Positions 2,615 through 61,704 of a DNA stretch of 64,000 nucleotides are shown piece by piece. The stretch is from assembly GCA_044892525.1 (NCBI GenBank), contig CM097887.1, positions 26,970,001-27,034,000 of the forward strand. The letters are read 5' to 3'. The stretch comes from Schmidtea polychroa (taxonomy: Eukaryota). The notes below the pieces were generated by a model, which saw only the letters and a program-made list of their open reading frames with translations, was not told where the DNA came from and made no database searches. Position numbers and translations under genes: made by a program. How positions within the stretch are numbered: the stretch's first letter is position 1; each line of letters begins with the position of its first letter.

Positions 2615-3752
2615 ACTCGTTAAAACGTTTAATATCCTCCTGACCAAGTGGGAAAATTATAACAAAATCACCAAGTCAAACACCACAAAAATTGACTTCA
2701 ACATTGCACGAAAATTCTTCGCCATAAATGCCATCTATAGGGATGTGACACTCGAAGATAAGAAGAGATCGATAATTCTAACAGAAAATATCATCAAAAA
2801 TACGTGCAAATCCCTCAGCAATATAAACTGGCCCAATGTCCTCACAAATTTCACTGTCCCAGATGAATGGACAAAGAAGCTCAAACCAAATGTCAAATCC
2901 CCAATACTCAGGGAAGAGGATGAAAAACTCATCAATTCAACAGAAGATGTACTCAGAACATATGAATTCGATAACATACGGGATCAAAAAACCACAATAA
3001 AATACTTCAATTTCATGATCAAAAGATCAATTGTTGGAGTACCTAGATCCTTCAACCTCGGCAAACATATAGCAAGTCTGCCAAACAATGAAGCAGCTCA
3101 AGAAGTAGAAGCAGAAGCCAAAAAAGCAGCAAATGTTCCTGATTTGAATGAAAACGAACAAGAAGTGGACATACAAATACCACAAAAAGAAGAGGAAAAA
3201 ATTGAAATCCATGAAAAAGCAAAAAGAGGACCAACCAAAATCCCATCTCCATACTCAACTGATTCAGGAGAAGAAAGAGATAAATCAATCATAATCGGTG
3301 AATCCTACTATGGAGATTCTAGTTATGATTTAGGATCTGAACTAGAAGATAGCGACTATGAAATAGAAGCTAAATATGCAAGATTTGACTACAACACAAA
3401 AGAAAAATCGACTACGAGTGAAAAGAAAATGACAGTCATAAAATACTCTGAAGATGAAAGCTCCACAACAAAAAGAGAAAATGAAAAATTCAGAAAACAA
3501 TTCGAAAAGGCAGTAAAGAAAAAAGAAAATGCGGACAAAAAACGCAAAGAAGAAGAAGCCAAAAAGGCAGCACAAGGAAAAGTATCAAAAAAAACGAATA
3601 GAGGAAGAAACGGAAGCCCAAATTACCGTTATATCTCAAAAAGAAAATGACCGAAAAAGGAAAAAAAACAAAAAGAAATACGGCAAAAAATGAAAAAATA
3701 TAAAGACAAAGAAGCAAAAGAAAAACTTCAAAATTACTGCAAATCTAGTTAA
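2615..3752 (+). CDS. Orphan ORF with acidic middle and Lys-rich tail; TE accessory ORF or terminal exon
   Basis: About 345 open codons with strong A/C strand skew. Preceded by a polypyrimidine-TAG acceptor (ends 2614) that keeps the frame. The Lys-rich text continues in another frame past the stop at 3650 to TAA at 3750-52, suggesting a frameshift. No recognisable domain. Confidence 0.45.
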
Positions 3753-4499
3753 GAGTAAGGGTCTATAAAAGACTTGAATCTTACCTGGTCCTTATATATT
3801 AATTATATAGTTGTTTATTATTTTATGCCAGCGTAGAACAAGGGTCCTGTAGACCTGAATTCTATCCTGTACTCTTACATATTTTAATTGTGTACATTTT
3901 CCATTACTAGTAATTATTGTACTTTCCATGTGACTGTTAACTAATGAAATTGTATGATAAATCATTTAAAAATAAATTCAAATAATTAGGTAAAGTATTT
4001 CCACTGTTTTTATGAATTTTGTCAATTTTTACCTAAAATAGGTCTTGTTCACTTAAATACGAAATTTCACTGATCTTTCTAATTTTAATATGAATTTATT
4101 TATTAAATTAATTATTGTGCTCTTTACAATTTTTATCATAGCATTTTTTAAGTGTCAACCAGACAATGTCCGATATCCAAAATTTAACAAAATGAAAAAA
4201 AATGTATTTTAATTGAAATATTAAAATACATTTTGTAAAGTCACTTTAAAAATTATTGCAATTTACATTAATATTCATATTTCGTGTGATTAGTCAGCAA
4301 TAGAAGCTAAAGAAAGTAAAGATATATTCGTTAAGATCAACTAAATTCCTTATTTGAGTGAAGATGACCTATTTGAGGTGTAAAATTTTCAATAAGAACT
4401 GCAAATATGACTTACCTATTTATTTAAATTTATAACTACTGAAATTATTATTCAGTTTCCCATAAATTACGGTAAATCCCATGAATCCATATTTTGTAA

Positions 4500-5100
4500 C
4501 TTTCACAAAAACCTTTTGAAAACTTTTGACATCTGTTCTACTTTTTCTTTAATTGAAATTTCCCGGAATTACATTATCGTGTTATATGCGGTGTCAGTTG
4601 TATATGTCTGACTCTGTGATCCACATTTTATAGGTCTTCTAGTCAATATCTTTTTAAAAATGTATGAATTTTTTAAGATCTATAACTCAAGCTTGCATCA
4701 TGTTTGAATCATGTCATTAAATATTATAATTTATGGTCCTTTAAATGGCTTGCTTATTTCTATACTTATTTCTAAACAAATAACTTAATTATTTTTGTTA
4801 CATATAATATATTCATGTTTTAAACTAACTGCTTTTTAAATTATTTTAACCTTATATTCTTTTTGTATTGAATAATTTATTTATTTCATGGACATTTTTG
4901 TTACTTTCCTTGATCACCCATAGGATATTAATAGTAATACCAAAAATTGGAATCTTACACCATTGGTAATATTTTATAAAATTGTTTATTGCATGGATCA
5001 ATGTTTACGTATGACTTGTCCAGAATCGTGAGCACATGTGAGAGTGTCCCTATTTTCAATGACAGTATAATTAAAATCAATCATCTAAATATATTTGCTA
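4500..5100 (-). mobile_element. Highly decayed Gypsy integrase-like remnant
   Basis: Fragments AHDSG.., GP and T.AY in the order expected for the zinc-binding and core integrase regions; many stops. Confidence 0.3.
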
Positions 5101-28400: not shown

Positions 28401-31212
28401 TTCATTTGTATAAAATATTCTAGAATTTGAGTATTTATACCAAAATATAAGCACGTGCTAAATAACCATTTTAAAACAGGAGATTCTCAATGACAAAGAT
28501 GATGTCAAACATATTTGGCCAGAGCAATTGCCATTATCTTGTCTCAGAGTCCTAGCGTTACGCAGTAATGGTTTACATAATGAAGCTGTCAAGCTTGCCT
28601 TATCAATTTGTCGATATTTAATTGGTCAACGTCCACAAATTACTACGCAATCTCGACCAGTTAAACCTATTGAACCGACTACACCGGCTAACCAGTCTTG
28701 TTGTTGTTGTCTAGATAATTCATCGACAGTAGACTCTAAATCAACTGCAATATCATCATTCAATTGTCTCCTTCAAAAATACTCCAATTGTACTGATATT
28801 ACTGAAAATATTAACGATTCCGAACGACAGACATGTGAGCTTCCTCTCTCAGAATCTTTTTTGAAATCATCAGAAATTTCATCCACGGTTTTAATGTCTT
28901 CCTCCACCGATTCGTTAGTGTCTTCGCCACTTCCAACAAATTATTCAACTATTAAAAATATCACACTAAATTCAAATAAGTCATCTTCTACCTCTACATG
29001 TTTTATGCAGACGTGCTCACCGCTATGGTTGTCCTCATCGAAACCTCCTTTACTTTCATCCAACATGGAATATAGTCTCAATCCATCTCTCTCATCTCAA
29101 CAACTGCCTTTACCCATCACAAATTCTACCGCTCCCATTTTACGATCAGGCTGGTTGGGAATCGTTGGTAATCCGATCAAAATCCTTGTCGAGTGTCTCC
29201 TTGAAGTCAGTAGGGTCGATTCCACATTAAACCAAACACAACAAATTTGTGGCAGCATCAAACCTCCATCTTCTGTTTCATATGATCATGTCAATATCGA
29301 AGCTACAGATTTGCCTGATATATCCTATCTTAATTTAGCATTACGAATCTCGATTTTAGCTCTTTGCCAAGAACGTTGTATGCCTCCAGACAAGCACAAA
29401 CAAGAACGTTGTCTCAATCAAGAAACCCGTTTGCTTGAATTGTTATCCACATTGCCGAAAGTCGATCCTGAATTAAGTCTTATTTTGGTTCAGTGTTTAC
29501 AGGCCGAATTGAATTGCGTTAACAACAGTGCTCTTTCTCCTAATTTACCACCGAATGCTTATCCGATGCATTGTACGGGAAATTTCTTTTTCAAATGGCT
29601 TCTTTCAATCAATCAAGATCTCGCCTATAGTCTCGTTCGTAGAGCAATGCGTTTACCGATTCTTGAAAATCATTCCGATCAACATCCTGAAGATCAATTG
29701 TTATTGCCTCCTCCTCCTTATCGGCGTATTACAGAATCGATTCGTTCTCAATTTCATTTATCTCAAATCCAATCCGTACCAATGCAACCTCCTCCGCTTT
29801 CACAATCGATTCCGAATCCTCCAATAATAACCACATCGATCAATGGAAGATGGCCGGTTTTGAGACGTGTCGAAGCCGCTCAATGTGAACTTGCTCTCAC
29901 AATGGTTCAAGCTGCCCGTGATTCTAGTCAACGATTGGATCAGGTTCTGAAAATATGTGATAGACATATTCACTCATCGACAAGTCTTTTCAAGTTATCT
30001 CAAGAAATCTGTTCCAAATGTTTCATGAATGCGCATTTACGATGTGCGGTTTTCCATTTGGCTCTCAATGTAGCCAGCCGTACTTTGCGTCGATCTCATT
30101 GGCGGCGCCGAGAAATGGTCCAATGGTTGATCAGTTGTGCTGTCCCGGTTGGTACTGTTGGAATTTTTCATTTGGTTTCAAACTGGCGGCATTATATCAC
30201 TCCGAAAGAAGCCGTTCTTCAAGTCGCTTCAACTCTTCTCGGTCCAACGCCGGGCTTGTCTCGAGTCATAGTGGAATCACATTCTCATCATTCATCTAGC
30301 GCACAGATTTCTGTAACTCAAGACGAACGTGTCCGACGGGAAGTGAGAAAAATGGCTTTAGAAGCAGCCTCGAAAGATCCTTTGCACTGTGGAATGCGAG
30401 CGCTGAGTTTATCGGAAAAAGATCCTCAAATGTTTGAAGCCACATATCAGGCGATATACGATGCTGCAGAACGGGGAGCAATCGGCCCAGCGGAACTCTT
30501 TTCTCTCGGCCGATATCTAGAACCCAGAAGCAATCGCAGAAAAGCCTACGCTCTGGCGTTATTCGCAATCAATTATCTTCAACCCGTCGAAGTCCAAGAT
30601 GTTTGCCCGGTTGCAACCGATCACGACATTTCCTGGGCTTGTATGCTTGCTCACAGCCTCGGCACTGAAGCCGTGTCGGAAATGATCAGCCAACTCGTGA
30701 GAAAAGTACGAACACCGCTTTTGTTAGCCGAGATTCTCCATCGATGTCGCCTCTCTCCGATTCTTGCTCATCAGCCATCATCCGATACAAATCGACGCAC
30801 GATAACAACCGCAACAGCAACAACCAACACCAACACAAACACCAACACCACAAACACCACAAACTCAACACCATCATCGGCATCATCGTTCAAAGTCTTC
30901 CTCGGTGTATCAGAACCACCTTTGCAATTGTTATTGAATGCAACCGTTGAAGCGTTCTTCAGTAGCACTCAACTCAGATTGGCCAATATCAGTCCGAGGC
31001 ATTATAATGATTTCTTGGAATTTCTCTGCAAAGCTCGGGATGTCTTCCTGTTAATTGTGCCTGGTGGCATGTGCAAGTTCAAGCAACTCATCGACAGCAT
31101 TCGTCATTCTCATCGTGGAAAAAGAAAGCTGAACAGTTTACTGAAAGAGCGTTTCCTGTTTGACAGTCTACCTATCACGGCTTCAGCAAGGAATAATAAT
31201 GACATGTTGTAA
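13294..31212 (+). CDS. ZSWIM4/5/6-like: ZSWIM4/5/6-family SWIM zinc-finger protein, 5'-partial; exons 13294-13421, 13481-13624, 17500-18083, 28480-31212 (about 1195 codons)
   Basis: All three introns are GT-AG with matching phases (1,1,0). The spliced protein reads [126 protein letters not shown], matching recalled ZSWIM4/5/6 blocks. The SWIM CxC..CxH motif is intact. Confidence 0.92.
14430..14665. other. Assembly gap (N run)
   Basis: Directly visible. Confidence 1.
15735..15880. other. Assembly gap (N run)
   Basis: Directly visible. Confidence 1.
15990..17170 (+). repeat. Two diverged direct copies of a ~200-bp AT-rich block (about 15990-16190 and 16980-17170), with (ATT)n tracts and an (AT)n run at 16358-16442
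   Basis: Shared gccttttg(a/c)tgcaaataat and tgctgctacca..actttata..(tta)n. Confidence 0.7.
18285..18448. other. Assembly gap (N run)
   Basis: Directly visible. Confidence 1.
19230..19960 (-). mobile_element. Decayed, rearranged Penelope-like RT fragments
   Basis: With frameshifts: Y.L...K....LRx[25 protein letters not shown] and ICDRLF..F..YK, which are Penelope RT motifs. Confidence 0.55.
19352..19486 (-). pseudogene. Actin pseudogene fragment (about residues 249-293)
   Basis: Reads [45 protein letters not shown]; 32/45 identical by manual alignment to recalled actin [45 protein letters not shown]. Confidence 0.9.
21247..21975 (-). mobile_element. Internally deleted piggyBac element
   Basis: [20 protein letters not shown] (PGBD4-like) plus a C-terminal Cys-rich domain [33 protein letters not shown] end at about 21243-21252; the other end is degraded. 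Confidence 0.8.
23950..24960 (-). mobile_element. Decayed hAT-like DDE transposase (CxxH type)
   Basis: Frame [68 protein letters not shown] resembles the GCDGT..NTG..LE..RPLQW.ICLLH.NEL family. Confidence 0.6.
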
Positions 31213-40509: not shown

Positions 40510-42837
40510 ATGTCAAAAATTGCTATAAATGGTAATGGTGCAACAGTAAAATTAAAGAAAGAACTAGTTTCTGATGATGATGATGTTCCTCTTTCTAAAC
40601 GAGTTAGAAATGAGACCAATGTTAGTGATGATGATGTGCCATTATTCAATAAGTACAATTTTTGATTCAAATTACCATAGCTTATATTTAATATTTCAGT
40701 CGTAAAAGAATATCCAAGGCAGCTGATAGATCATCACAACCAGAAAAAAAGAAAGTTAAGAAAGAAATAAAATCTCCCAAAAACAGTGTATCAGATCTAA
40801 AATCGCCTAAAAAAGAAAAGGCCAAGAAAGAAGAAGAAACGGTTTGGGAATGGTGGAAAGAAGAAAAAAGAGCTGGTGGAGATAAATGGCAATTTCTTGA
40901 ACATGCCGGACCAATGTTTGAGCTAGCATACGAACCATTACCCAGCCATGTTAAGTTTTATTATGATGGCAAACATATGAAATTAAGGCCGGAAACCGAA
41001 GAAATTGCTACATTTTATGCTAAAATGTTTGACCACGATTACACTAAGAACCAAGTTTTCAACAAAAATTTTATGCGTGATTGGGCAGCTGTAATGTCAA
41101 AGGATGAAAAATCTGTGATAAAAGATCTAAGCAAATGCGATTTTAAACCAATGCAAAATTATTTCAAAAAACTAAGTGAAGATAAAAAAGCACTGCCAAA
41201 AGAAGAAAAAGAAAAAATTAAATTGAAAAACGAAGAAATTGTAAACCAATACGGCTACTGCATGATGGATAGTTACAAACAGAAAATAGGCAACTTCAAA
41301 ATCGAGCCACCTGGATTATTCCGTGGTCGAGGGAATCATCCTAAAATGGGTTCTGTAAAGCGTAGAATCATACCGGAAGATGTGATAATAAACTGTTCTA
41401 AAAACTCAAAAATTCCAAAACCACCGGCTGGTCACAAATGGAAAGAAGTTCGTCACGATCCCACCGTAACATGGCTGGCTTGTTGGCAGGAAAACGTGCA
41501 AAACAATTTCAAATACGTCATGTTAAACGCTTCATCGAGATTAAAGGGAGAAAAGGATTGGAAAAAATATGAAACCGCCAGAAAATTGCACGAAAAAATC
41601 GATAAAATCCGAAGAGATTACACTAACGATTTTAGTCATCGGGAAATGCGCATTCGACAGCGAGCTGTGGCCTTGTATTTCATTGACAGACTGGCATTGA
41701 GAGCTGGTAATGAGAAAGGTGAAGATGAAGCTGATACTGTCGGCTGTTGTTCATTGCGGGTCGAGCATATCAGTTTGGAGGTCGACTCGAGCACAGATGA
41801 ATACATTGTCAAATTCGATTTCCTAGGTAAAGATTCGATTAGGTACCAGAATGAAGTTTCTGTTCCGAAAAAGGTCTACAAAAATTTGTTGCGATTTAAA
41901 GAAGGTAAACAAGACGGTGATGATTTGTTTGACAGGTTGAACACGACCACTTTGAATCAATATCTCCGGGAATTGATGCCCGGATTGACAGCGAAAGTCT
42001 TCCGTACTTATAACGCTAGTATCACATTGGAAAGGGAACTTGTAAATAAAAAGATTGTCGCAGATAATGTCTCTAATAAAGTTCTAGCGTATAATTCAGC
42101 CAATCGACAAGTCGCTATACTTTGTAACCATCAACGGGCGGTTCCTAAAACTTTTGAAAAATCAATGGAAAATTTATCAGAAAAGGTAATTAAATTTTAC
42201 ATTTTAAGAAAATAAGCGAATTTTAATAATTTAAATTAGTCTTTGTTATTTGTTTTGATGAATTAATTATGTTAAATTTTATCTCAAAATTTAAATTGAT
42301 TACTTATTGACATTTTTACAATATTTATTTTAATCGCTTATCCAAAATAGATTGATAAGAAAAAGAAAGATTATTCCGAGGTGAAAGATCAAGCTAAAAT
42401 ATTAAAAGGAGAATATTCTAAAACAAAAGATGCTGGAACCAAAGATAGATTTGAGAAACTGAAGAAGAAATTGGAGAAAACAAAGGAAATGTTGAATAAA
42501 ATGATAAATCAACAAACTGATCGAGAAAAGAATAAAGATGTTGCACTTGGAACAAGTAAATTGAACTATCTTGATCCTCGAATTTCGATTGCTTGGTAGG
42601 ATATTTTTATTATCCATATGTTTATTTATTGTCTGGAAATGTTTTTCAAGGTGTCTCAAGAATAATGTCCCACTAAATAAGATCTACAACAAAACTCAGC
42701 TTCAGAAATTCCAATGGGCAGTCGATATGACTACCGAATATTATAAATTCCAGGATCTAAATTCGGACAAATCGACTAATGTTTTGAAGGCATGTGATAG
42801 TAATGATGATGATGACGAGGAGGATGATGATGAATGA
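40510..42837 (+). CDS. TOP1: DNA topoisomerase I (type IB); exons 40510-40652, 40700-42185, 42351-42595, 42651-42837; 686 aa
   Basis: GT-AG introns of 47, 165 and 55 nt keep the frame. Motifs [73 protein letters not shown], and catalytic SKLNY(42567-69)LDPRI. Exon 1 is less certain. Confidence 0.97.
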
Positions 42838-43711
42838 TGTCATTTTTTGAATAGAGTTGTTTGTTTTTTTCGTTTCTATGAAACTCTTTTAAATCTGTAC
42901 TCTAATGAATTGTGGACGCGTCCGAATGTTCTCTGTGTGTGTGTGTGTGAGCAAGTCAGCGTATGTGCGTGCGTCCTTGATTGAATTAGTAAATGTATTT
43001 GATATCATTTCTTTTCTTATCCATTTCTGTGTGCTGATTTCATAATTTCATTGATATCTGACTATGTCGACGACAAAAGGAAGAGGATGATGCTGATTGG
43101 ATAATATGTAGTAATATGTTACTGAAAACAAATATAATTTTGCATGTTAATGTAGTTTCAATTAATGTTATTTATATATGCACTTCATTTCGTGTTGATT
43201 TTGCATATTACAATTATTTTAATAAATTGATGATTTTCAATACTTTTGTTTGTTGGTTACATTTGTGAGTTTCGTTTTTATAAGCTTTATTTTATTTAGA
43301 TTACTAAGATTACATTTGATTGGATTTAATTTAGATTTAATTTGTTTTAATTAAACCAATGAGAGCGTATTTTATGTGCAATTTAACTTTTGTGTAATCA
43401 TAGACCTGTTTAAATTGTTTTCTTATTTATCTCGCGCTAATCATTTGTAATATAGCTATCAGGTTGAACAATAAAATTATCCTCCAATGACACTGAAACT
43501 CATTGGAAAGTAGGTTTAATGGTGCTGATTTCGAATTATCTGAAACAATTTTCTTTATTCGACTAGCCTAACATAATTGTATCACTTCAATCTGTGCACC
43601 TAATTCCGAAATAAAAAAAGTTAAAAATCGATAAAGTTATACACACCAACCGGCAATTGATTATCATCGAATGGCCATTGATTTGAAAATTTAAAAATAA
43701 ATATTAACTTA

Positions 43712-43927
43712 CCGTATTTTAGCGCATATAACGCGCGCGTTATACGCATTTTTACAAACCGTGCACCCCCCATGCGCGGTATCTGTGGGTGCGCGCTTTA
43801 TGATTTATATTTTACACGTGGCGGCTTTGCCAGTGGAAATATTTTTATGATGTGACAGTAACCCTACCATCGGTTTTATTGTTTATTGTAATCAGATACC
43901 GCGCGCGTTATATGCGCTAAAATACGG
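43712..43927. mobile_element. pogo-type MITE nested in the Tc1-like element
   Basis: Perfect ~28-bp TIR CCGTATTTTAGCGCATATAACGCGCGCG; TA TSD. Confidence 0.92.
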
Positions 43928-44063
43928 TACCTATAATAAATGTGTGTGTGTCATAGCCAGATGTGACATTGAATTATCAAGGTGACACTATAGAAAGATA
44001 GAAAAAATCGCTGTTGGAAGAAAAATAAATAAATACATACAAACACGGTTCACAAAATTTCTA

Positions 44064-44854
44064 CACCAAAGCGCATTTAATTATCATAAATGAGACATTC
44101 ATTTAGCTTTGTCAAATAAGCTTTGTTCTGGATTTTAGTTAATTTTAAGATTTTTTGTTAAAATAATGAAACAAGAAGTAAGATATTTATTTATTTATTA
44201 TAATATGCATTAAATATTTCATAGTTTTATTAAAATATCAAGAATTTAGGGAAGAATCTTTAATATTATTATTAATATGATTTTTGAAATTATTATGATC
44301 TGGTTTTCGAAGTTTCTCGTTAACTGCTTGGAATATTGCAGTAAATCATCAATTGAAGGTAAATCTGTCTGGTAAATCCATCAACCGAAGAAACTCTAGT
44401 CCTTACCCCATTTTTAATTTTGCTCAACACTTTCGATGGGGTTCAAAAATGGATTATATGGCAATTTTTCTATTTGAATAGTCAATGAAAATATATTATT
44501 GTAAATGAAATAGTCGATCCTGATGAAGTTTCTGACATATTCTTGTATATTTTTTTATAATTAATTAATTTTAAATGGAAAATGTTTAGCTAATTGAATG
44601 TCCGCATGATAAATCAATGTCCTATAGTGTGTATTTTTTATTATAGAACCGTGTTTGTATGTATTTATTTATTTTCCTTCCAACAGCGATTTTTTCTATC
44701 TTTCTATAGTGTAAGAGCTAATTGAATGTCACCTAGCTAATTCAATGTCCCTTCTGGCTATGAAACACATACATTTATTATAGGTAAGTTAATATTTATA
44801 TTATTAAATATACAAATCAATGGCCATTTGATGATAATCAAATGCCGGTTGGTG
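44064..44854 (-). mobile_element. Second copy of the same Tc1-like family, inserted inverted into the first
   Basis: Both TIRs present; TA TSD at 44062-63 and 44855-56; the host sequence resumes seamlessly after it. Confidence 0.85.
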
Positions 44855-45596
44855 TATAATAAAAAATATACACTATAGGACATTGATTTATTATACGGAC
44901 ATTCAATTAGCAAAAAAATTTCAATTTAAAATTAATTAATTATAAAAATATATACGAGAATATGTCAGAAGCTTCATCAGAATCGACTATTTCATTTCAA
45001 GAAATTCAAAGATGAATGCTCTTCAGTACATGTATGAACAAGAGATTCGGTAGATCACGAGTAAGAAATAGAATTTATAACAATATGCCAACAAATCGAG
45101 ATCCCAATATCCAAAGATGAGCAAATCCATTCACAATAATATCTTCATTGACTAGTCAAATTGAAAAGTTGCCATATAATCCATTTTTGAACCCCATCGA
45201 AAGTGTATAGCAAAATTGAAAATGGGGTAAGGACTAAAGTTTCTTGAGCTGATGGATTTACCAGACAGATTTACCTTCAATGACAGATTTACTGCAATAT
45301 CCCAAGCAGCTAACGAGGAACTTCGAAAACGAGATCATAGTAATTACAAAACTCATATTAAAGTCATATTAATATTCATATTAAAGATTCTTCCCTAAAT
45401 ACTTGAAGAAACTGGATATTTTAGGTGAACTATAAAAATTGTAATGTATATTTTAATAAATAAATAAATATCTTACTTCTTGTTTCATTATTTTAACAAA
45501 AAAACTTAAAATATAACTAAAATCCAAAACAAAGCTCAATTGACATTGCTAAATGAATGTCTCATTTATGATAATCAAATGCGCTTTGGTGTAATA

Positions 45597-46224
45597 CATC
45601 AACTGGTAATTGATAATCATATAATGGCCATTGATTAGGCCTTTTATAATACAAATATTAACTTACCTAAAATAAATGTGTGCGGGTCATAGCCAGATGT
45701 GACATTAAATAGACAGTTACACTAGAAAAAAATCGCTGTCGGAAGATAATTAAATACACACAAAATGGTTCACAAAATTTATATAATCAAAAATACACAA
45801 TAGGAGATTGATTAAGCTTATTGACATTTAATAAGCTCAAAAAATTTTAAAAAATATATAAATAGGATGCTTTTTAGGAATTAATTATTTCCAGCTCAAG
45901 AAATCCATAGAAATTTGTAAATTTCGCATTAAACTTTAGTTAATTTATAAAACTTTTCTATAAAATAACCATAGATGATAAAAAAAGATTATTGGCACAA
46001 TTGAGAGCGATCACGAATTTTACGAAATAGGCAGAAAAAAAAGAAAGAAAACAGTGATTTGTTAAAATAAACTATAAAGACTGATATTTAATAAATATAT
46101 TAAATGAAAGAAAATCAGATTAAATCATTTAAAATAAAAAGTTTTAATATTAATATTAAAACCAAACTCAATTGACATTTTTAATTAAATGTCTTATTAA
46201 TGATAATCAATTGCGCTTTGTCAG
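45597..46224 (+). mobile_element. Third, more diverged copy of the Tc1-like family
   Basis: catcaactggtaattgataatcat.. start, shared gtcatagccagatgtgacatt block, and ..atgataatcaattgcgctttg end. Confidence 0.7.
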
Positions 46225-47297: not shown

Positions 47298-48072
47298 TAG
47301 TTGTTGATATCTAATTGTTAACTGGTTGTTTGTATCTAGTTAATGGGTAGATTGGGTTGTGCGTGGCCAATACCCTTAAGGCCAATACTACAAAGGGGAC
47401 AAAACATCCTGTAGGATAAACTCAGACTATATATATGATAAAACGAATTGACAATAACTTTTTATTGAACAAGCATGCAAATTTACTTTGCAATAATAAG
47501 TCAGTACGGATGCGTTGAGGTTCAATAGGAGCCGAGATAAAAATACACTAGGGAAGTTTTAGAAAAATAAATAATCCATAAATAGTATTTAATAATTACT
47601 TAAAATAGAATTAAATTATAAATAATTACTATAGTTACAATTAAAATATAAATAGTAATTAAAAATTACTATACTTAGAATATAAATAAAACTAGTATTT
47701 AAATAAAAATATGTTGTAAAATAGTAATTAAATAATTACTATTTATAGAATAGGTTAAAAATCTTTAATATAAATACCAATACAAATTTTAGTTTATGGA
47801 CGATAAAAATAGTCAGAATAAAATTAGATAATTAGCTAGACGAGCAAGCTAGACAAACATTTGAGAAACCAAAATTCGACACGCCAATCCGATAAATTTA
47901 TATCGGCAAATAATTTCGATCGACAAATACACTCAAGCTAGTTCTAACATCAACAGATTAAATAAATAACTGGATCTTGTAAGACATATATATCAAAACA
48001 ATAACTACCCAACGTATATGGAATAACAAAATTTACAATCTTTTCTCAACACTTCACAATAATAATCAAAGT

Positions 48073-48478
48073 CAGTGGCGTACCAAGGATTTCTGGGGCC
48101 CTTGTGCAGATTTTGGGACGCACAAAATATTTGTCGAACGAAGTGATCCGACTCGGATTGGATTTGACGTTTTATTAATAAACAAGTCCTCATCACATAA
48201 AAAAAACCAACGTCAAGTAAAGCAAATAATTTAATAGATGAATGGGTGTGACATATGTGGTTTACAACTATATCCAATATAGATTCCTAATAATATTAAA
48301 TGTATAAACCGTTCAAACTGTGGTTACTGTCTTAATAAAAACAAAACAAACGCCAAAGCGATGCTTGGTTTGATGACAATCGGGGAATTTATAATGCCCG
48401 AACGTATAAATTTTACTAATTTTTCGTCCTGGGCCCTTGTGCCGTGCACAACCTGCACAACCTATTGCTACGCCACTG
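48073..48478 (+). mobile_element. hAT MITE, 406 bp, inserted in the LTR-like region
   Basis: TIR CAGTGGCGTA(C/G)C; perfect TSD ATCAAAGT; near-identical to 54136-54806. Confidence 0.95.
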
Positions 48479-49074
48479 ATCAAAGTTACGTTTGACCGAT
48501 TCTCAGCACGGCGTTGATGCTTTAACAAAAGATAATATTCACCTTTTATTTCTTTAGGTTCTTTTGACCGACGTTTTCCTTTTGTTTCTTTGATTTGATC
48601 CTTTTTCACTCTTTATATTCTTATTCTATCTCTTCTTTTTCCCTAATCTGAGATTAGTAATCTCCTAAATACGTTTTTGCCTTTTCCTAAGCTCGATTTC
48701 TTCTTACCCTACCTGAGGCAAAATGCCGATTTGCTCTGATTTTCCTCTTCCTTATATACTCTTAGAAATCGTTATGATAAATGGTTATTGCCGAGCCAAT
48801 CTCTCACTTGTCATTCGCTTCCACATATCTGTTTCAGCTGTCACTCATAATGGTCCAACGAACAAAAATAATTAATAGCCCATTCGGCCCTTTTACATGC
48901 ACTATCTTCTCCTTGCGCTTTTCAAATTAATCATTGTGTCAAGCTAATGGGCCCAAATCTTCCTTCTGTTTACTTTTCTTCTTGTTTATCCAGCTCGGGT
49001 TTCCTTCCTCTCTCGGGTTCTCCATTGGCTCGGGTTTCCCATTAGCTCGGGTTTTCTATTAGCCAATTAATTAA

Positions 49075-49829
49075 TTAATTAACGTTTTCTGTTTTTACAC
49101 ATTTGAATACGTTTATCATTTCACTATATTCATTATCACAATTCACATAAGGTCTGACATCATCTAAAATTTTTAATTTATATCTCAATTCAAGTTCTAA
49201 ATTTAAAATATTATTTAATTTATCAGTAATATCACCTGTATCTCCCTTGATCAATGCTTCATTTAATTCAAATTTAATTCTAACAACATCGTATTTGACA
49301 GGTTTCTTATTGGTAATCATGCTCATTATTTGTATCTCATTTTCAATACCGGGGATCAATCCACAATCTACTAAAAATTCGTCATCCTCCAACATTCGGC
49401 CCATAAATCTAAGTTCTACTGCCCAGACTTCACACTTGTGCATTTTTCTCTTTTTAGCTCGTGCACCTTTTCGTATGCTTCAATTTGATAATCGGATTTG
49501 GTGTTATGTGATGCATTTGCTTTGATGAATATTGGGTCTAACCATTTAATTTTTCGTAGAGATTGGCCAAATTCTTTCATAAAGTTTTCGAATACCTTTC
49601 GCTTTTCCACACTTGCTGCATAAAATTCTGCACAAAGTTTAATAACGATTTTAAGTTTTGTTAAACTCGACGATATTTTCATTAGCTTCATTAATACTTC
49701 TGTCAACTTCTGAGAATTTGTATCAGATTTTGACTTGTTTTCTAGCCTTTGCAATAAGTATTGTATTCTTTTCACTTTGCATATCCGTTTTAACTCTGTT
49801 TCTTGTGACATCATCCAGTTTTGATTCAT
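49075..49829 (-). pseudogene. Frameshifted ORF containing a ubiquitin-like domain (about 49324-49535)
   Basis: Restoring one A in the A5 run (49443-47) joins the two track ORFs into IFIKANASH..YQIEAYEKVHELK..ELRFMGRMLEDDEFLVDCGL..EIQIM. Confidence 0.6.
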
Positions 49830-49961
49830 CTTTCCTCAACTTTCGTCCCGTCATCATGTGAGCATCTGTTTCTTCATCTGATTCAAATTTTGCTATCATT
49901 TATTCAATTTTTGATTCAATTGTTTAACATCTTTCTCGATTTTCTCTCTAAATTTATTTTT

Positions 49962-51210
49962 CTAAACATAAGCAACGTTATTCTTTGACTGGCTTTCATC
50001 CTGAAATCTAATTGTACGTTTCAAAATTGGTTTTTGAAATTTATCAGAATTCCTGGGACAAGATCTTGCAATATGCCCGTAATTTCTGCACAAATGACAT
50101 TGAATTTGCCCATTTAAATTCACATTGTCTCTCTGTGGTGATAGTGACGTTGATGCTGACCTTGACCTAGGAAAAAAATTTCCAGAAACATGTCCTTTTT
50201 TACCACTACGATAACATTGTACCTCATTAAAATTTGACTTCACATTAGGAATTGCTCTCCGAAAATTTGTTCCTCTATCATCTTTACGCCAATCTGGACT
50301 CAATTTCCTGGGTACTCTGTCAGAATTATTTTTAAACCAACACTGGTTTGTATAATGACCAATATTTTTACAAATATCACACTGAATAACTTTAGCTCTC
50401 TCAGTGCCTGGTGAATTTTGGCTTGCTCTGTTCACATTATTATCGTTCCTCCATTTGGTTGATGGGTTTTTCTATCATTGGAATCTATTTCCTGATTCCC
50501 AATTGTCTTGGGTTGGGGTTATTGATCTTTCTCTTTGTACTGGAATTATTGCAAATACCTCAGATTTATTTTTAGAGCTCTTTAGATTCAATTCAATTTT
50601 CATAGCTTTCTAACTAGTTCATCAAAATTGTCATAGTCTACACAACACAATGCCATCTTTTTTTTCTTTATTTTCTTCTGACAAAAATTAGTCTTGAATC
50701 AGCTCCTTCATCTGTTGGGCTAATCCTGGTTGTTTCGCATCTTCTTCAAAGAATTTGCTGGCAAGGGTCGATAAATTATAAGCAAATTCGCTCACTGTTT
50801 CATTTGGATTTTGGACTCTATTATAAAATTTTTCACGCATTAATCTCTTAATATCTTCTCCAATGAGTTTAGCAGCCAATGCATCTTTCAACTTGGCCCA
50901 ATCATCGCCGATTATTTTCCTGTCGATTTGTTGCCAAACCTCTCTAGCTGCTCTTTTAAGATATAAGGGTAATCTTTGAATCCTGATTGCTTGAGACCAT
51001 TCATAAGCCATTGCATACATATAGTAATCACTCATAAAATCAATAAAAATAACTGGATCTCCTCCATATTGCTCTACTGGCAATCTTTGACAACTGGCAA
51101 AATCATTATTTTTTTAACAACTGAAACTCGCAAATCTTCATTACTCATTATAGCTTCTTTGTTATTCTTACTGCGTAAATAATATCGATTCACTTTAATA
51201 AAATATTTTC
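49962..51210 (-). pseudogene. gag: Ty3/Gypsy gag pseudogene: capsid domain plus three CCHC knuckles
   Basis: YYLRS start; capsid pattern QYGGD..LPLYLKRAAREVW..W..LKDAL..RVQNPNETVSEF; knuckles CDICKNIGHYTNQC, CYRSGKKGHVSGNF (decayed) and CHLCRNYGHIARSC; several stops and frameshifts. Confidence 0.88.
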
Positions 51211-51349
51211 TCAAATTGCACAAAATCTAAATTTCAAATTATTACTACAATAAATAATTTACCTTTTCACAATTAACTTTAATAATTTCAATTTATCACA
51301 CTTTATTTTCCACAATTTTTCTTTTCAACAATCTTTTCACCAACTTTTG

Positions 51350-51367
51350 ATCACGTCGGACTTACCA
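51350..51367 (-). promoter_or_regulatory. tRNA-Trp-like primer-binding site
   Basis: TGGTAAGTCCGACGTGAT versus canonical TGGTGACCCCGACGTGAT (15/18), 5 nt after a CCCAACA end and upstream of gag. Confidence 0.7.
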
Positions 51368-51864
51368 AAATATGTTGGGTTATTGATTGAGATAATTAAT
51401 GAATAAACCTTAACAACAGGGACAAAATATTTTGTCTGATCCATGAAATCAAAGTGTAATAATGAATACATTGCCATTACTATTCTTCCTTTTCTTAGAA
51501 TTACCATATCCAGTAAAAAGAGATATATTTTCATTATCACCATTAGAATTTAAAATAGTTTTAATTATTACCTTGTGCGCAAATATATAAAGTTGCTACC
51601 CTCAATTTTGATATGATTAAATACGAGAATCGCGTCTTTAAAAAGCGTACGAAAACATCAGCGGTATCAGCCAAATCTTTTTGATCTCTATTGGTAACTT
51701 TCACTTGAAAGGTTTGTCAATTTTTTCTTCACCACTTTAGATAAATTAAAACATATCTAACGAATAAACGTGAGCTGTGTTCACTTCTCAAGTGGCTGGT
51801 TATAAATAATTCATTCTTAATTTTCTTCCATCTTGTCATAATAAGATTTTTGAACAATGACAAT

Positions 51865-52832: not shown

Positions 52833-53834
52833 ATGAGAAGACCATTCTCTGAATTTTCAATTAAATTGAGGCGGTATTTAGCTTGTAGACAACAAAAGAG
52901 TCTTTTACCTTTTGCAACTTGTGTCGTTGGATTGATATTTGGTCTATTATTTTTTTTTATACTATTGATAAGTTTTATATCATTGGGAATCGGAGTGGGA
53001 ATAAAGTTCATAATGCCCAAGTATGATGTAGTCTCACTGGTTCTGAAAATGCTTGTGAAAGACATGTATCCAAGCAACTTTACCAATCCATCGAACCCAA
53101 ATGGGCATATGGTAAAACAGTTTATGGATATGTTTATGAATATAATTTACTCACTTGGGGATCAGCATTATATGTTGGGTATTTCCTCGATTATTTGTTG
53201 TATAACAATCATTTTCGCAATTCTTTGCCATCTGCAAATCATATTCTTCCTCTTTATTATCGGATTTTTTATTATCGGATGTTTTTTCATAAGCGTTGGA
53301 GCGGGATTCTGGCCATATTTAATTGGAAATCTGAGAGACTTGTTGACTTTTGTCCTTATTGATAAATTCGACTGGGACAAATGTTTGATTTGTGATCCCG
53401 CTAAGTCCAATCAAACGTCAACGGTGCCTTCACCAGATAACATCATTGCGTTCATTGATATAATAATGACTATGTTGAAACTATATTTCAATTGTTGTGG
53501 AGTTGATAGCCCTAATGATTTTGGAGTTAAAGCTCAAAATAATCGAATTCCTTTTTTATGCTGTTTGAATGCAACCACGTATGGTTCAATCCATGGACCG
53601 TTTTCGGAATGTTATATACAAAATGCGGCCTCAGGATGTCTACCTGTTATTATTGAGCAAACCTATCAGTATGGAGATTATTTTCGACTTTTTATTACGC
53701 TCTATGTGTTCTGTGGACTGTTTATTTTATTTTTGGTGTTTATTTCAGTTTTAGAAACTGTTTATTTTTATCTAAACGGATCACATGAAATAGATTTAGA
53801 AATAACGCACAATAATGTTCCGTCCACAAAATAA
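52833..53834 (+). CDS. Divergent single-exon tetraspanin, 333 aa
   Basis: Four hydrophobic segments; large loop with CCG, IPFLCC, C and GC motifs; AT-rich 3' UTR with AATAAA-like signals. Confidence 0.85.
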   Translation: MRRPFSEFSIKLRRYLACRQQKSLLPFATCVVGLIFGLLFFFILLISFISLGIGVGIKFIMPKYDVVSLVLKMLVKDMYPSNFTNPSNPNGHMVKQFMDMFMNIIYSLGDQHYMLGISSIICCITIIFAILCHLQIIFFLFIIGFFIIGCFFISVGAGFWPYLIGNLRDLLTFVLIDKFDWDKCLICDPAKSNQTSTVPSPDNIIAFIDIIMTMLKLYFNCCGVDSPNDFGVKAQNNRIPFLCCLNATTYGSIHGPFSECYIQNAASGCLPVIIEQTYQYGDYFRLFITLYVFCGLFILFLVFISVLETVYFYLNGSHEIDLEITHNNVPSTK

Positions 53835-54135: not shown

Positions 54136-54806
54136 CAGTGGCGTACCAAGGATTTCTGGGGCCCTTGTGCAGATTTTGGGACGCACAAAATATTTGTCGA
54201 ACGAAGTGATCCGAGGAACCAAACCATAGGCAGGCTTGGGGGAAGGTGATTAGCAACTCTCTGAGTAAATTTGCGCATTTTAAAACAGAAATAGTAGCGT
54301 TTCCGGTTGGGTTGAAAGGATATTTTGTTATATAATATCCAACTAATTATACAATTATTGTAAATTGATATACAATAAGCAATATTATTTTTATCCTTTT
54401 TACCGTATAGTAAATATCAACAAAACTCTATGACCTCTGCCATGATGTCGTTATACCGCCATTTTGAATCGAGTAGGCGAGTAAATTGGATTTGACGTTT
54501 TATTAATAAACAAATCCTCATCACATAAAAAAAACCAACGTCAAGTAAAGCAAATAATTTAATAGATGAATGGGTGTGACATATGTGGTTTACAACTATA
54601 TCCAATATAGATTCCTAATAATATTAAATGTATAAACCGTCCAAACTGTGGTTGCTGTCTTAATAAAAACAAAACAAACGCCAAAGCGATGCTTGGTTTG
54701 ATGACAATCGGGGAATTTATAATGCCCGAACGTATAAATTTTACTAATTTTTCGTCCTGGGCCCTTGTGCCGTGCACAACCTGCACAACCTATTGCTACG
54801 CCACTG
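54136..54806 (+). mobile_element. hAT non-autonomous element, 671 bp; longer version of 48073-48478
   Basis: Same TIRs; perfect TSD CTTAGTGG; ~270 extra internal bp. Confidence 0.95.
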
Positions 54807-55189: not shown

Positions 55190-56793
55190 CCGTGTTTTGC
55201 CTAATAAAAGTCATACTCCCAATACAAGCCCATTGTTCGTTTTTTAAAAAATAAATAATTACAAGCCCTACTCCTATTACAAGTCCTATTTTAATTCATA
55301 CACCATTTATACGTTTATTTTTATGTATTATTGTTTTTTATAATGATTTTTAAATGTCATTGATTCAATATTCATTTAGTAGACATTTTTTAACCCATGA
55401 ACGTACAGAAGAGTTCCAGAAAGGCTTATACAATAGATTATAAGCTTAGAATCCTCAGTGAATCCCGTACATCCGGCATGACCCTTGCAAAGTTTTGTGC
55501 AAAAGTAAATCTTGATCTGCGAGTTGTTCGTCGTTGGAAAGCAGAGGAAGAGAATCTCCAATCGCTAAAGAATGCGGGGAGACAGACCAGAGCTCAAGGC
55601 GGAGGAAGAAAATTGGTAATTTCTGACATTGAGGAACACATATTTGACTGGATTATCGAGCGCAGATCTAGAAGTTTAGTCGTAAAGCGTTCTGACATCC
55701 AAGAATATGCACTTAGATTGGCACAAGAAAATTCAAGTAATCCCGAATCGAGTTTCTCCGCCTCTGGGAAGTGGTTGTCTGGCTTTATGAAACGATATGA
55801 CCTCTCATTGAGACGATCAACGACGCTATTCAAACTGTCCGATGATGATATAGTCGAGCGTACTCTGTCTTATAAAGCTTTTATTGATAGCTTGGATATA
55901 TCAAAATATGATCCCGAATTTTGTATTTCAATGGATGAAACGGCCATTTTCTATGGTGAAAGTTCGCAGACAACCATTGAAATGCGAGGAGCTTCATCAA
56001 TAAGAGTTCTATCCACAGGTTATGAAAGTTGCCGGCTAACTTGTATACTGGGTGTACGATTAAATGGAACCAAGATATCTCCCACAGCCATTATTAAGGA
56101 GGAAAAGGATACTGTTATAGTTAGGAATGGTTTGAATATAATGGAGTCGGAGAAAGCATGGTCCACCCAGGACATTCTCAAAAAATGGATTGACATCAAT
56201 TTCCCATTGGTGCTTAGGGGACAAAAAAGAGGTTTGCTAATTTGGTATTCGGCCTCTACGCATCGGGCTACCCAGATGAAGTCATTTTTGCAGACCAGAA
56301 ACATTGATCAAGTAATGATTCCGTCGGGGATGACTGGTTATTTGCAACTTATGGATGTGGCAGTAAATAGTCCGTTTAAATTGGGATTTAGAGATAAAAT
56401 AAACGATTATATTGAGCATAGGATGGTCAAAAATGCAAAGGGAAATGCCATAAAACCGCCTTTGGTTGAAGTAGAGAGTTGGATTCGGCATTCTTGGGGG
56501 AAAATTAATACGAATATTATCAGTAATGGGCTACGCGCATCATATCTATTATACAATCAGAATTTTAGTGAAACTTTAATTTACAATCATGAAATAAAAA
56601 TCAGAGCTGCACTTGATAATTTACGTAATCAGGATATCAGTGCGTCCAGTCAGATTATTGAAGATGATATGGACGACGAAACGGCTATTTTTGAATAAAA
56701 AAACTACTCCCAATACAAGTCTTTTTTGTATTTTTAAACAATTTTACGCAAAAAAATAAATACAAGTCATGACTTTTATTCGGCAAAACACGG
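55190..56793 (+). mobile_element. Full-length pogo/Tigger-type DNA transposon, 1604 bp
   Basis: 25-bp TIR CCGTGTTTTGCC(T/G)AATAAAAGTCAT with 1 mismatch; TA TSD; subterminal actcc(c/t)a(a/t)tacaag repeats. Confidence 0.95.
55397..56698 (+). CDS. pogo-family transposase, 433 aa (HTH + CENP-B HTH + DDE_1), probably catalytically defective
   Basis: RKAYTIDYKL..W; FSASGKWLSGFMKRYDLSLRRST; MDETAI; LLIWYSASTH (Tyr where Asp is expected); TGYLQLMDVAVN.PFK. Confidence 0.93.
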   Translation: MNVQKSSRKAYTIDYKLRILSESRTSGMTLAKFCAKVNLDLRVVRRWKAEEENLQSLKNAGRQTRAQGGGRKLVISDIEEHIFDWIIERRSRSLVVKRSDIQEYALRLAQENSSNPESSFSASGKWLSGFMKRYDLSLRRSTTLFKLSDDDIVERTLSYKAFIDSLDISKYDPEFCISMDETAIFYGESSQTTIEMRGASSIRVLSTGYESCRLTCILGVRLNGTKISPTAIIKEEKDTVIVRNGLNIMESEKAWSTQDILKKWIDINFPLVLRGQKRGLLIWYSASTHRATQMKSFLQTRNIDQVMIPSGMTGYLQLMDVAVNSPFKLGFRDKINDYIEHRMVKNAKGNAIKPPLVEVESWIRHSWGKINTNIISNGLRASYLLYNQNFSETLIYNHEIKIRAALDNLRNQDISASSQIIEDDMDDETAIFE

Positions 56794-58479: not shown

Positions 58480-59315
58480 GGAAAACCGAAATTGAATGGC
58501 GGTGAAGCAGAGAAGCAATGGCAAAGAAACATATGAGAAAAACAGAACTATAAAAGGGTACAATCAGACATGAAATGGGAAAATGCGCAAACCTGAGGAA
58601 GTTGAATAAAGTGAAAGTTATCGAAATTGAAGCTGGAAACGTGAGAGGGGTAGATTAGGGGATGGTGAAAACGACAGTGAGCAAGAAATTGATAGAAAGT
58701 GTTTAGAAAGGGTCGTAAAACAGACAAATAAAAAACACAAAATATTAATTAATTAATTAATTGGCTAATGGGAAACCCGAGCAATGAAGAAAACCTGAGC
58801 GCGGCAATTTGGAAGGATAAACAAATGGGGAATTCAGAGAGCAATTATCCAAACAGCTGGATAAACGAGGGTAAACAAAAAAAGGGGAATTAGGAAGAGG
58901 GTCAACAGAAATAGCTAATTAGGGAATGATAACTAAGGAAGTCAAAACCAATTAGGTCAAAAATAGGGCAATTACAACGATTATGGGAGTATATAAGGAA
59001 ACTCCAAATTCACATAATCGGCGATAGCCTTAGGTAGGGAAGAAGAAAACGACATTAGGAGTAGGAGGAATAGAATGAAAGAAGAAAAAGAATTATAGGA
59101 AAGACTGAAGAGTTAGACAAGGAGTGTCAAAAGAGATTGGATCAGAGAGCGGAACTAAATTGTGTGAGAATTGTGGTTAACCCACAGTGTAATTAATTGT
59201 CGAGAGTTGTAAATTTTTATATAACAAATATACGTTGGGAGTTTATGTTTATTGATTTTGGAACACGTGGAGTCAGAGTAACCAACGGTTGATTTTGATA
59301 TCATAAAACCCAACA
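58480..59315 (+). mobile_element. Truncated relative (copy B) of the 47-51 kb element: ORF tail plus LTR-like module
   Basis: taattaattaattggctaat..gaaacccgag, TATATAAGG, tacgttggg, acacgtggagtcagag, ending cccaaca. Confidence 0.75.
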
Positions 59316-60535: not shown

Positions 60536-61480
60536 TGTTGGGCTTTACAAATTCAAGTTGGTAATCTCTGACTCCACGTGTCCTTTTAATCAAAACAATA
60601 AACTACCCAACGTATTTTGAATCACAAAAATATATTTCTCTCGACAATAAATAATCATTAACCAAAGTTTTACGAGTTTGACCAATTCTCCGCTCGGTGT
60701 TGATGCTTTGACAAAAGATAATATTCACCTTTTTATTCCCTAGCTTCTTTTGACCAACCAAAAATCTTTTTCTATTTAATTTAATTCCTTTCCACTTTTT
60801 ACGTATCTCCTGATTCTATATTTTCTTTTTCCCTAAACTTCCTAATTCGTCTTTTCCCTTTACCTACCCTCGTTTTCTTCTAACTCCTAGCTGAGGCAAA
60901 ATGCCGATTATTTTGAATTTCGACTTTACCTTTATACTAGAATAACCACTTTGATTAATTGGTAGTTCCTTTAACGCTGTTTGAACCATATCATGATTAA
61001 TTGGCTCCTTTTGCTACTCCTTCGTAATAGGCCTAAACTTTGTTTGTATCCATTAATCATACTGTCATGATAATGGCCTTCCGAGATTCTCATTTTGTTT
61101 ACTTTTCATGTTAATCGAGCTCGGGTTTCCTTCATCTCTCTGGTTCTCCATTGGCTCGGTTTTCTATTATCTCAGGTTTTCTATTAGCCAATTAATTAAT
61201 TAACGATTTTCTGTTTTAAGACATTCGAATGCTTCTTAACTCTTTCTAACTATTTTCTGATAAATTTCTAATCACCATCTTGTTGACCCTTAGCTAATCT
61301 ATATCTGTCCCGTTTTCCGATTCAATTTCGATAAATTTACCATTTATTGTTTTTTCTCGGATTTTTGCTTTCGCAACTGCTTGAGCCATTTCTTGATACT
61401 GCTTCCATCATATTTTTCTTTACTATCAATTCTGTGCATGACCACGATTTTATTTGTTTTTTTCATTCAACTTCAATTTA
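60536..61480 (-). mobile_element. Truncated relative (copy C), tail-to-tail with copy B
   Basis: Direct similarity to 48480-49110 (ctgaggcaaaatgccgat; ctcgggtttcc repeats; ctattagccaattaattaatt); ends cccaaca. Confidence 0.8.
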
Positions 61481-61510
61481 TTTAAATTTATCTTAATTTA
61501 CTGACCTCAG

Positions 61511-61704
61511 CACTTTCATTAAATTGACTCTACTGACGAATTATGTTTTGACTATGATTTTATCTTTTGCTGGATCTATTATTATTAACTTCTTGTACGA
61601 TGATTCTTTGGTATTGATTCTACAGAATCCAGTTGGTTTATTTCATGCCTCAATTATCTGGTATTTAATTTATTACTGTCCTGAAGATATCGTTTATAAA
61701 TTGT
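61511..61704 (+). CDS. TMEM38-like: TRIC/TMEM38-family channel fragment (exon or pseudogene)
   Basis: NYVLTMILSFAGSIIINFL..ASIIWYLIYYCPEDIVYKL resembles TMEM38 MLxxFGxxI..ASAVWYLIFFCPxDLFYK. CAG acceptor at 61508-10; possible GTACAA donor near 61706; no other exons found. Confidence 0.65.

Follow-up and report, generated by a model that had tools for sequence, protein, structure and literature searches.

The window (the whole 64-kb stretch of DNA analyzed here) contains, on its minus strand, what is almost certainly a dead 5′ fragment of a compact Burro-lineage gypsy LTR retroelement, ordinary debris of a known lineage. The fragment was mapped against an unbroken natural copy of the same family, to which it is 89.9% identical in DNA over 49112–51386 (pairwise mapping). 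All element features given below lie on the minus strand. A remnant of the 5′ LTR end (51373–51418) ends in CAACA; matches to the family stop at 51383–51386, at most at 51397, leaving roughly 14 terminal bases that correspond to family LTRs, and the remainder of the ~1-kb LTR is missing. The TGTTG at 51418 may be a sign that the LTR has been deleted internally. The primer-binding site (PBS; 51350–51367) claimed in an initial annotation is real, being complementary at 16 of 18 bases to the 3′ end of the genome's tRNA-Trp(CCA) genes; in most young copies, all 18 bases match.

The Gag capsid region (50600–51148) was recognized on the window's own piece (PF03732, E = 1.9e-7) and by mapping to the natural copy, and has indels and a stop inside. 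The nucleocapsid (50058–50381; PF00098) has CCHC knuckles at 50340–50381, 50175–50216, and 50058–50099. The gag and the three knuckle positions thus agree with the initial annotation, but the second knuckle is decayed here, whereas unbroken copies have all three complete. What had been described as ~400 bp of Lys/Glu-rich decayed coding sequence is in part a charged, coiled-coil-like linker (49780–49961) that is found in unbroken copies too; the rest is a conserved four-helix domain (49539–49779; AlphaFold2 model of the natural copy) that belongs with the ubiquitin-like domain (UBL) following it. This domain, UBL1 (49318–49538), has a β-grasp fold according to fold searches and is split by a frameshift near 49444. 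The first part of the helical domain of a second unit (49112–49290) comes next, and the element then breaks off before UBL2, the Bcl-2-like domain, env, and pol.

Compared with the natural copy, the window copy has four in-frame stops (50690, 50477, 50474, and 49964) as well as six coding indels, including the one within the UBL, and is dead, as had been annotated. Contigs from four sequencing runs gave no clear bridge over the UBL frameshift or over the junction at 49112–49114. The single UBL frameshift may be an assembly error at that spot; the copy is dead regardless, because nine other lesions remain. In agreement with the annotated lack of RT, RNase H, and integrase, tblastn revealed no env- or pol-like sequence in the whole 64-kb window. 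The Ty3/gypsy hallmarks kept by this copy are the PBS, gag, and the LTR tip only.

Junction with a sister-family LTR

All family matches to the window copy end at 49102–49114. The adjoining DNA (47989–49114, minus strand) derives from a sister-family LTR (G/H/V type), of which it covers an inner part through to the 3′ side. This piece, a highly abundant repeat, is joined mid-LTR and is 80–82% identical to G/H/V LTRs and 87–90% identical to other copies. The same piece recurs with 96–98% identity over ~155 bp at 39 other sites of 40 scored. The possibility that the window copy belongs to a dedicated short gag–UBL–LTR family draws on the fact that the PBS, gag, UBL, and LTR DNA share one orientation, with no pol between them. 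We consider this very improbable: the LTR piece comes from another family and begins mid-LTR, a matching 5′ LTR is absent, none of the 19 other closest copies has this LTR piece next to it, and the junction is spanned by the window alone among the 40 sites scored of 1578 candidates.

Since the family matches stop here, the LTR is foreign, and the window alone spans the junction among the sites scored, the "tail, stop, and LTR" of the initial annotation represent a break-off point rather than the end of an element. The ~80-residue tail is the start of the second helix + UBL unit, which is cut at 49112 and followed by a few codons of unrelated DNA, and the stop at 49075 falls in that unrelated DNA. 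The LTR-like sequence is indeed LTR, but not the element's own 3′ LTR.

The sister LTR piece is itself interrupted by a MITE (48073–48478) with terminal inverted repeats and an 8-bp target duplication. A second, near-identical copy (99–100%), likewise with an 8-bp target duplication, lies interrupted at ~54136–54784, and two further decayed sister-family LTR pieces (71–81% identity) occupy 58507–58800 and 60536–61521.

The intact family carries pol

The genome searched comprises 781 Mb, includes four very large contigs, and has 385 candidate sites for UBL DNA. Copies that are 93–100% identical over the UBL region include open frames of 2662 and 2828 residues, in which gag and three CCHC knuckles are followed by UBL, a Bcl-2-like domain, a fusion glycoprotein, protease, RT, RNase H, and integrase. 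The glycoprotein is the env (PF24664, E = 6e-89), encoded in frame between the Bcl-2-like domain and the protease, whereas the Bcl-2-like domain (PF00452) stays below the Pfam cutoff (E = 2e-4 to 1e-2). The initial annotation had placed the UBL "where pol should be" and had proposed a genome search for pol-containing relatives as a test of its pol-less reading. The search found full copies with protease, RT, RNase H, and integrase, and the test thus came out against that reading; the UBL sits between nucleocapsid and Bcl-2/env in elements with ordinary pol.

Fourteen copies, chosen for long open frames, were fetched: five have pol, six share a common env + pol deletion, two have other deletions, and one is truncated. 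Where both LTRs were seen, pol-bearing copies span 14.7 to 20.5 kb, with LTRs that are 99.8–99.9% identical; without insertions, the compact element measures 14.7 to 16.4 kb, with LTRs of ~1 kb. Target duplications of 4 bp flank 12 of the 13 elements checked. Full-length copies show the protease–RT–RNase H–integrase order, paired TG…CA LTRs, a PBS, a polypurine tract, and the short target duplication, that is, the hallmarks of Ty3/gypsy elements. Three sister families of 16 to 18 kb have the same domain layout. A tree of RT–RNase H, in which three other gypsy elements were the only outgroups and which carries a long-branch warning, joins the four families to giant elements with 100/100 support. 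Features of the Burro/GYPSM1 lineage are present as well: Gag with three CCHC knuckles opens one long ORF, UBL and then the Bcl-2-like domain precede env, and env is in frame.

Several further observations were made on these elements. The compact family has a second ORF (~510 residues; 3421–4959 of the locus near G000:C2 10.687 Mb) with a weak match to RNase_T exonucleases (E = 3e-5), and in the sister families a second ORF of comparable length shows no clear family. ORF1 extends ~400 residues beyond integrase, with two hydrophobic segments; this part, at 63–92% DNA identity among close copies, is far more variable than the remainder and is what the deleted lineage described below fuses to the env signal segment. 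Genes for tRNA-Trp(CCA), the primer tRNA for these elements, form a tandem array (G000:C4 from ~55.02 Mb; 284-bp period, ~100 units listed), and the tRNA has 933 pattern matches genome-wide.

Relation to giant Burro elements

Burro-1/GYPSM1 and Burro-2 to -4 are reportedly giant gypsy-like planarian LTR retrotransposons, a description attributed to Jurka in 2007 and to Grohme and colleagues in 2018. The same genome contains a 35.8-kb LTR element of this kind (G000:C1:10228971–10264803) with 5.2-kb LTRs, an ORF1 of ~4800 residues that includes a MATH domain, and separate TRAF-like and BIR frames (479 and 392 residues), which matches the Burro-1/GYPSM1 description in PMC6431247 and points to a planarian, probably Schmidtea, as the host. 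Gag is homologous between the compact and giant elements, and env, RT, and integrase are 35%, 57%, and 60% identical, respectively. The TRAF-like frame combines zinc fingers with MATH (E = 8e-27), and BIR frames of ~392 residues recur at most of the 150 sites scored of 309 candidates.

In three of three copies of the giant element, a profile of the helix + UBL unit finds a match between MATH and Bcl-2, at 9.2 to 12.2 bits against 5.0 bits for the best of 200 shuffles; the link is weak in score (blastp E = 1.6e-4). Arkhipova and Yushenova (2019; PMC6431247) place a Ubi2/SUMO-like motif between MATH and Bcl-2, and env between Bcl-2 and protease. Because the unit profile matches at the place of that motif, the headline observation, a UBL in the Burro lineage, had already been published. 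Two further UBL-looking stretches before MATH gained no support from the unit profile; one has weak UBX-type matches (E = 0.005–0.06).

The compact elements resemble Burro elements in having a single polyprotein with retrotrans_gag, three CCHC knuckles, a ubiquitin/SUMO-like domain before the Bcl-2-like domain, env, and then protease, RT, RNase H, and integrase. They differ in being, at 15–17 kb, about half the size and in having two helix + UBL units, a number that differs from that in the giant families, and an amplified env + pol-deleted lineage. Burro-1/GYPSM1 proper (>30 kb, ORF1 of ~4900 residues, MATH and BIR) is not matched by the compact family, in which no MATH match was found in ORF1 and no BIR match in the frames scanned. 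The compact family may already have a curated entry, whether as Burro-2, -3, or -4 or under another name. The literature searched yielded no description of the compact family, the duplicated helix + UBL unit, or the amplified env/pol-less lineage, which Grohme et al. (2018) and Jurka (2007) may cover; these points are likewise absent from the available portions of PMC8532177, PMC11410931, PMC13238120, and PMC10175614.

Structure and divergence of the helix + UBL units

Fold and profile tests were performed with a natural relative (~89% DNA identity) in place of the window's broken frame. The frameshift-split UBL proposed for the window was borne out: the unbroken copy matches PF00240 with 27.4 bits (cutoff 25.4), although the 3′ half of the window's own UBL gave no Pfam match. 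For the two-UBL region, single-sequence prediction reached a pLDDT of 40.5, whereas an alignment of 13 rows gave a usable AlphaFold2 model. Structure searches with this natural copy support the β-grasp fold that had been suggested, the predicted UBL1 superposing on integral UBL structures (Rad23, ubiquilin, parkin, and ISG15) with an RMSD of 1.2 to 1.9 Å.

The retroelement UBL differs from these integral UBLs in its position behind a four-helix domain in a polyprotein and in its basic Ile44 position; nor is it closer to parkin than to the others. The initial label "parkin-like" finds no backing, as parkin is missing from the 44 PDB sequence matches and, by fold, takes ranks 39–40 of 50, with ubiquitin and Rad23 placed higher. 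In 16 of the 18 copies read, and likewise in each of the four families, the Ile44 position of UBL1 is Lys or Arg; in UBL2 it is Thr, Val, Ile, or Met. Gly-Gly is missing from every aligned UBL1 and UBL2 row, in line with the earlier description of an integral domain; the UBLs would therefore be neither conjugated nor cut by host hydrolases. Rad23 and parkin UBLs also lack Gly-Gly. Ubiquitin insertions of pestiviruses (BVDV), found among the BFVD matches, are similar in that a ubiquitin fold lies inside a viral polyprotein. These insertions are near-true ubiquitin and are cut at Gly-Gly by host hydrolases, whereas the retroelement UBL shares ~26% identity with ubiquitin and lacks Gly-Gly.

The four-helix domain has no reliable family match by profile or fold, and the ESM Atlas yielded leads below 0.8 only and none for the helical part. 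A MIF4G/HEAT-like identity found no support. A search for protein homologues with the ~1390-residue frame found nothing among 838 candidates. With the unit alignment, one of 7999 sequences matched, namely P0024 (ENA source), a 452-residue protein with two helix + UBL-like units (E = 2.4e-23 to the unit profile), which probably represents a related element in another organism. A search of 50% clusters gave 22 matches, and the 13 scanned are all generic multi-UBL proteins.

Between families, pN was 0.36 to 0.40 for UBL1, 0.24 to 0.29 for UBL2, 0.14 to 0.16 for capsid, and 0.06 to 0.07 for RT, with pS near saturation. The units thus diverge 2 to 3 times faster than capsid and 4 to 7 times faster than RT, and the Bcl-2-like domain diverges like them. 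From these comparisons, the UBL units appear to be constrained yet fast-diverging between families, although relaxed constraint would also fit the fast divergence. A search with one loose pattern did not establish a regular protease-site motif at the domain borders.

An amplified lineage without env and pol

Six of the 14 fetched copies have an identical deletion junction, the lost segment reaching from just within env to a point past integrase. Five of the six have their own LTR pairs, 97.2–99.9% identical (99.6–99.9% in four of the five), and four of these five have distinct 4-bp target duplications. Genome-wide, a 23-base pattern across the deletion junction was found at ≥53 sites and an env-type pattern at ≥15, with 0 for reversed controls; 53:15 is not a true ratio, as both patterns derive from young copies and miss older env-bearing ones. 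Four of the six deleted copies have open frames of 1316 to 1406 residues that span Gag, the two UBL units, and the Bcl-2-like domain, three of which continue to a terminal hydrophobic segment. The initial proposal of a pol-less family with a Gag/UBL cargo therefore holds for a pol-deleted lineage with an expression-capable frame, but not for the window copy, a one-off truncation. The latter ends ~1.2 kb of element sequence before the deletion junction, and neither its 5′ part nor a tree assigns it to the deleted or the pol-bearing form. In the tree, it is older than the deleted copies fetched (terminal branch 0.049); among 12 older relatives, five have env or pol sequence, one has the deletion form, and six are truncated.

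Plant TR-GAG elements, as described in the available text of PMC8704663, have two LTRs, one gag-first ORF, and no pol, and rely for their movement on an autonomous partner from their own family. The deleted copies elsewhere in the genome, not the window copy, resemble them in these structural features and have their own LTR pairs, target duplications, and a shared pol-less structure at many sites. They differ in belonging to an animal gypsy lineage and in their ~1400-residue ORF, which adds two UBL units, a Bcl-2-like domain, and a membrane-anchored tail. By analogy, the deleted lineage may be co-packaged with, and mobilized in trans by, pol-bearing copies.

The deleted copies are mosaics: copies K and M have 5′ blocks in common with pol-bearing D and L but a junction-proximal block in common with deleted copies A and I. 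Whether the lineage is a pure parasite, with a Gag–UBL–UBL–Bcl-2 frame that is merely young and not selected, is a question on which we lean slightly toward no. In favor of parasitism, four of five LTR pairs at 99.6–99.9% leave little time for decay, the 5′ part is renewed through recombination with pol-bearing copies, and the frames of copy B are already broken. Against this, the deletion leaves the frame open for ~300 codons more, to the terminal hydrophobic segment, and the block next to the junction is specific to the lineage and also occurs in its older copies, which indicates that the lineage is older than its youngest insertions. A bolder suggestion, which we put forward only tentatively, is that this lineage of at least 50 copies is kept for its protein, an anti-death/ubiquitin-decoy helper in planarian stem cells that rides on, and swaps segments with, autonomous elements. 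The helper, in this similarly speculative picture, would consist of Gag, two helix + UBL modules, the Bcl-2-like domain, and the env signal segment fused in frame to the membrane-anchored tail. The lineage also offers a natural experiment on whether retroelement cargo is kept without replication genes.

Proposed mode of action

Taking element identity and mode of action together, we consider the following explanation likely. A single polyprotein comprises Gag, three zinc knuckles, two [four-helix + ubiquitin-like] units, the Bcl-2-like domain, Env, and Pol, with tRNA-Trp priming the element. By analogy with gypsy elements, the element's own protease would release the UBL units, which could then, without being conjugated, serve as adaptors or decoys aimed at host ubiquitin and cell-death signaling. 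This host-facing role, which could go either way, is suggested because of the Bcl-2-like domain here, MATH/TRAF and BIR in the giant relatives, and the fast yet seemingly constrained divergence.

The main rival is that the units form a particle-internal scaffold that binds the element's nucleocapsid or RNP. Tandem, nonconjugated coronavirus UBLs have a scaffold role, and nsp3 Ubl1 binds the N protein, according to the available text of PMC9938351 and PMC8769549; moreover, the units come directly after the nucleocapsid, have lost the Ile44 patch, and are retained with Gag in the deleted lineage. Against a scaffold, the units outpace capsid and RT in divergence, as the Bcl-2-like domain does, and their number differs between compact and giant families. 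Ordinary gypsy elements also assemble without such units, and we regard the scaffold as rather unlikely. The least likely option, which we doubt strongly, is that a parkin/Rad23-type UBL docks Gag or cargo on the proteasome via the Ile44 patch, the kind of proteasome engagement initially envisaged. The basic residue at this position makes the usual binding of UBL1 to proteasome receptors improbable, Rad23 is not told apart from ubiquitin, SUMO, or ISG15 by fold score, and parkin is missing from the sequence matches. Compared with both, the adaptor or decoy role remains our preferred reading. The compact family isolates a minimal accessory kit, two helix + UBL units plus a Bcl-2-like domain, that is conserved across four families with silent sites near saturation, and these small natural domains ease testing of the published, putative idea that Burro elements meddle in host ubiquitination and apoptosis.

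Other features of the window

An uninterrupted single-exon ORF of 333 residues (52833–53834, plus strand), 1.4 kb from the element, is tetraspanin-like, with a PF00335 match (E = 6e-6) below the cutoff. Three long ORFs on the plus strand look, by eye, like an exon of a ZSWIM-type gene (28462–31212), an exon of a type IB topoisomerase (40692–42215), and a pogo/Tigger-like transposase (55394–56698). Nested long inverted repeats at 43640–46220, with arms of up to 223 nucleotides at ~90% identity, are likely foldback or MITE-type DNA elements.
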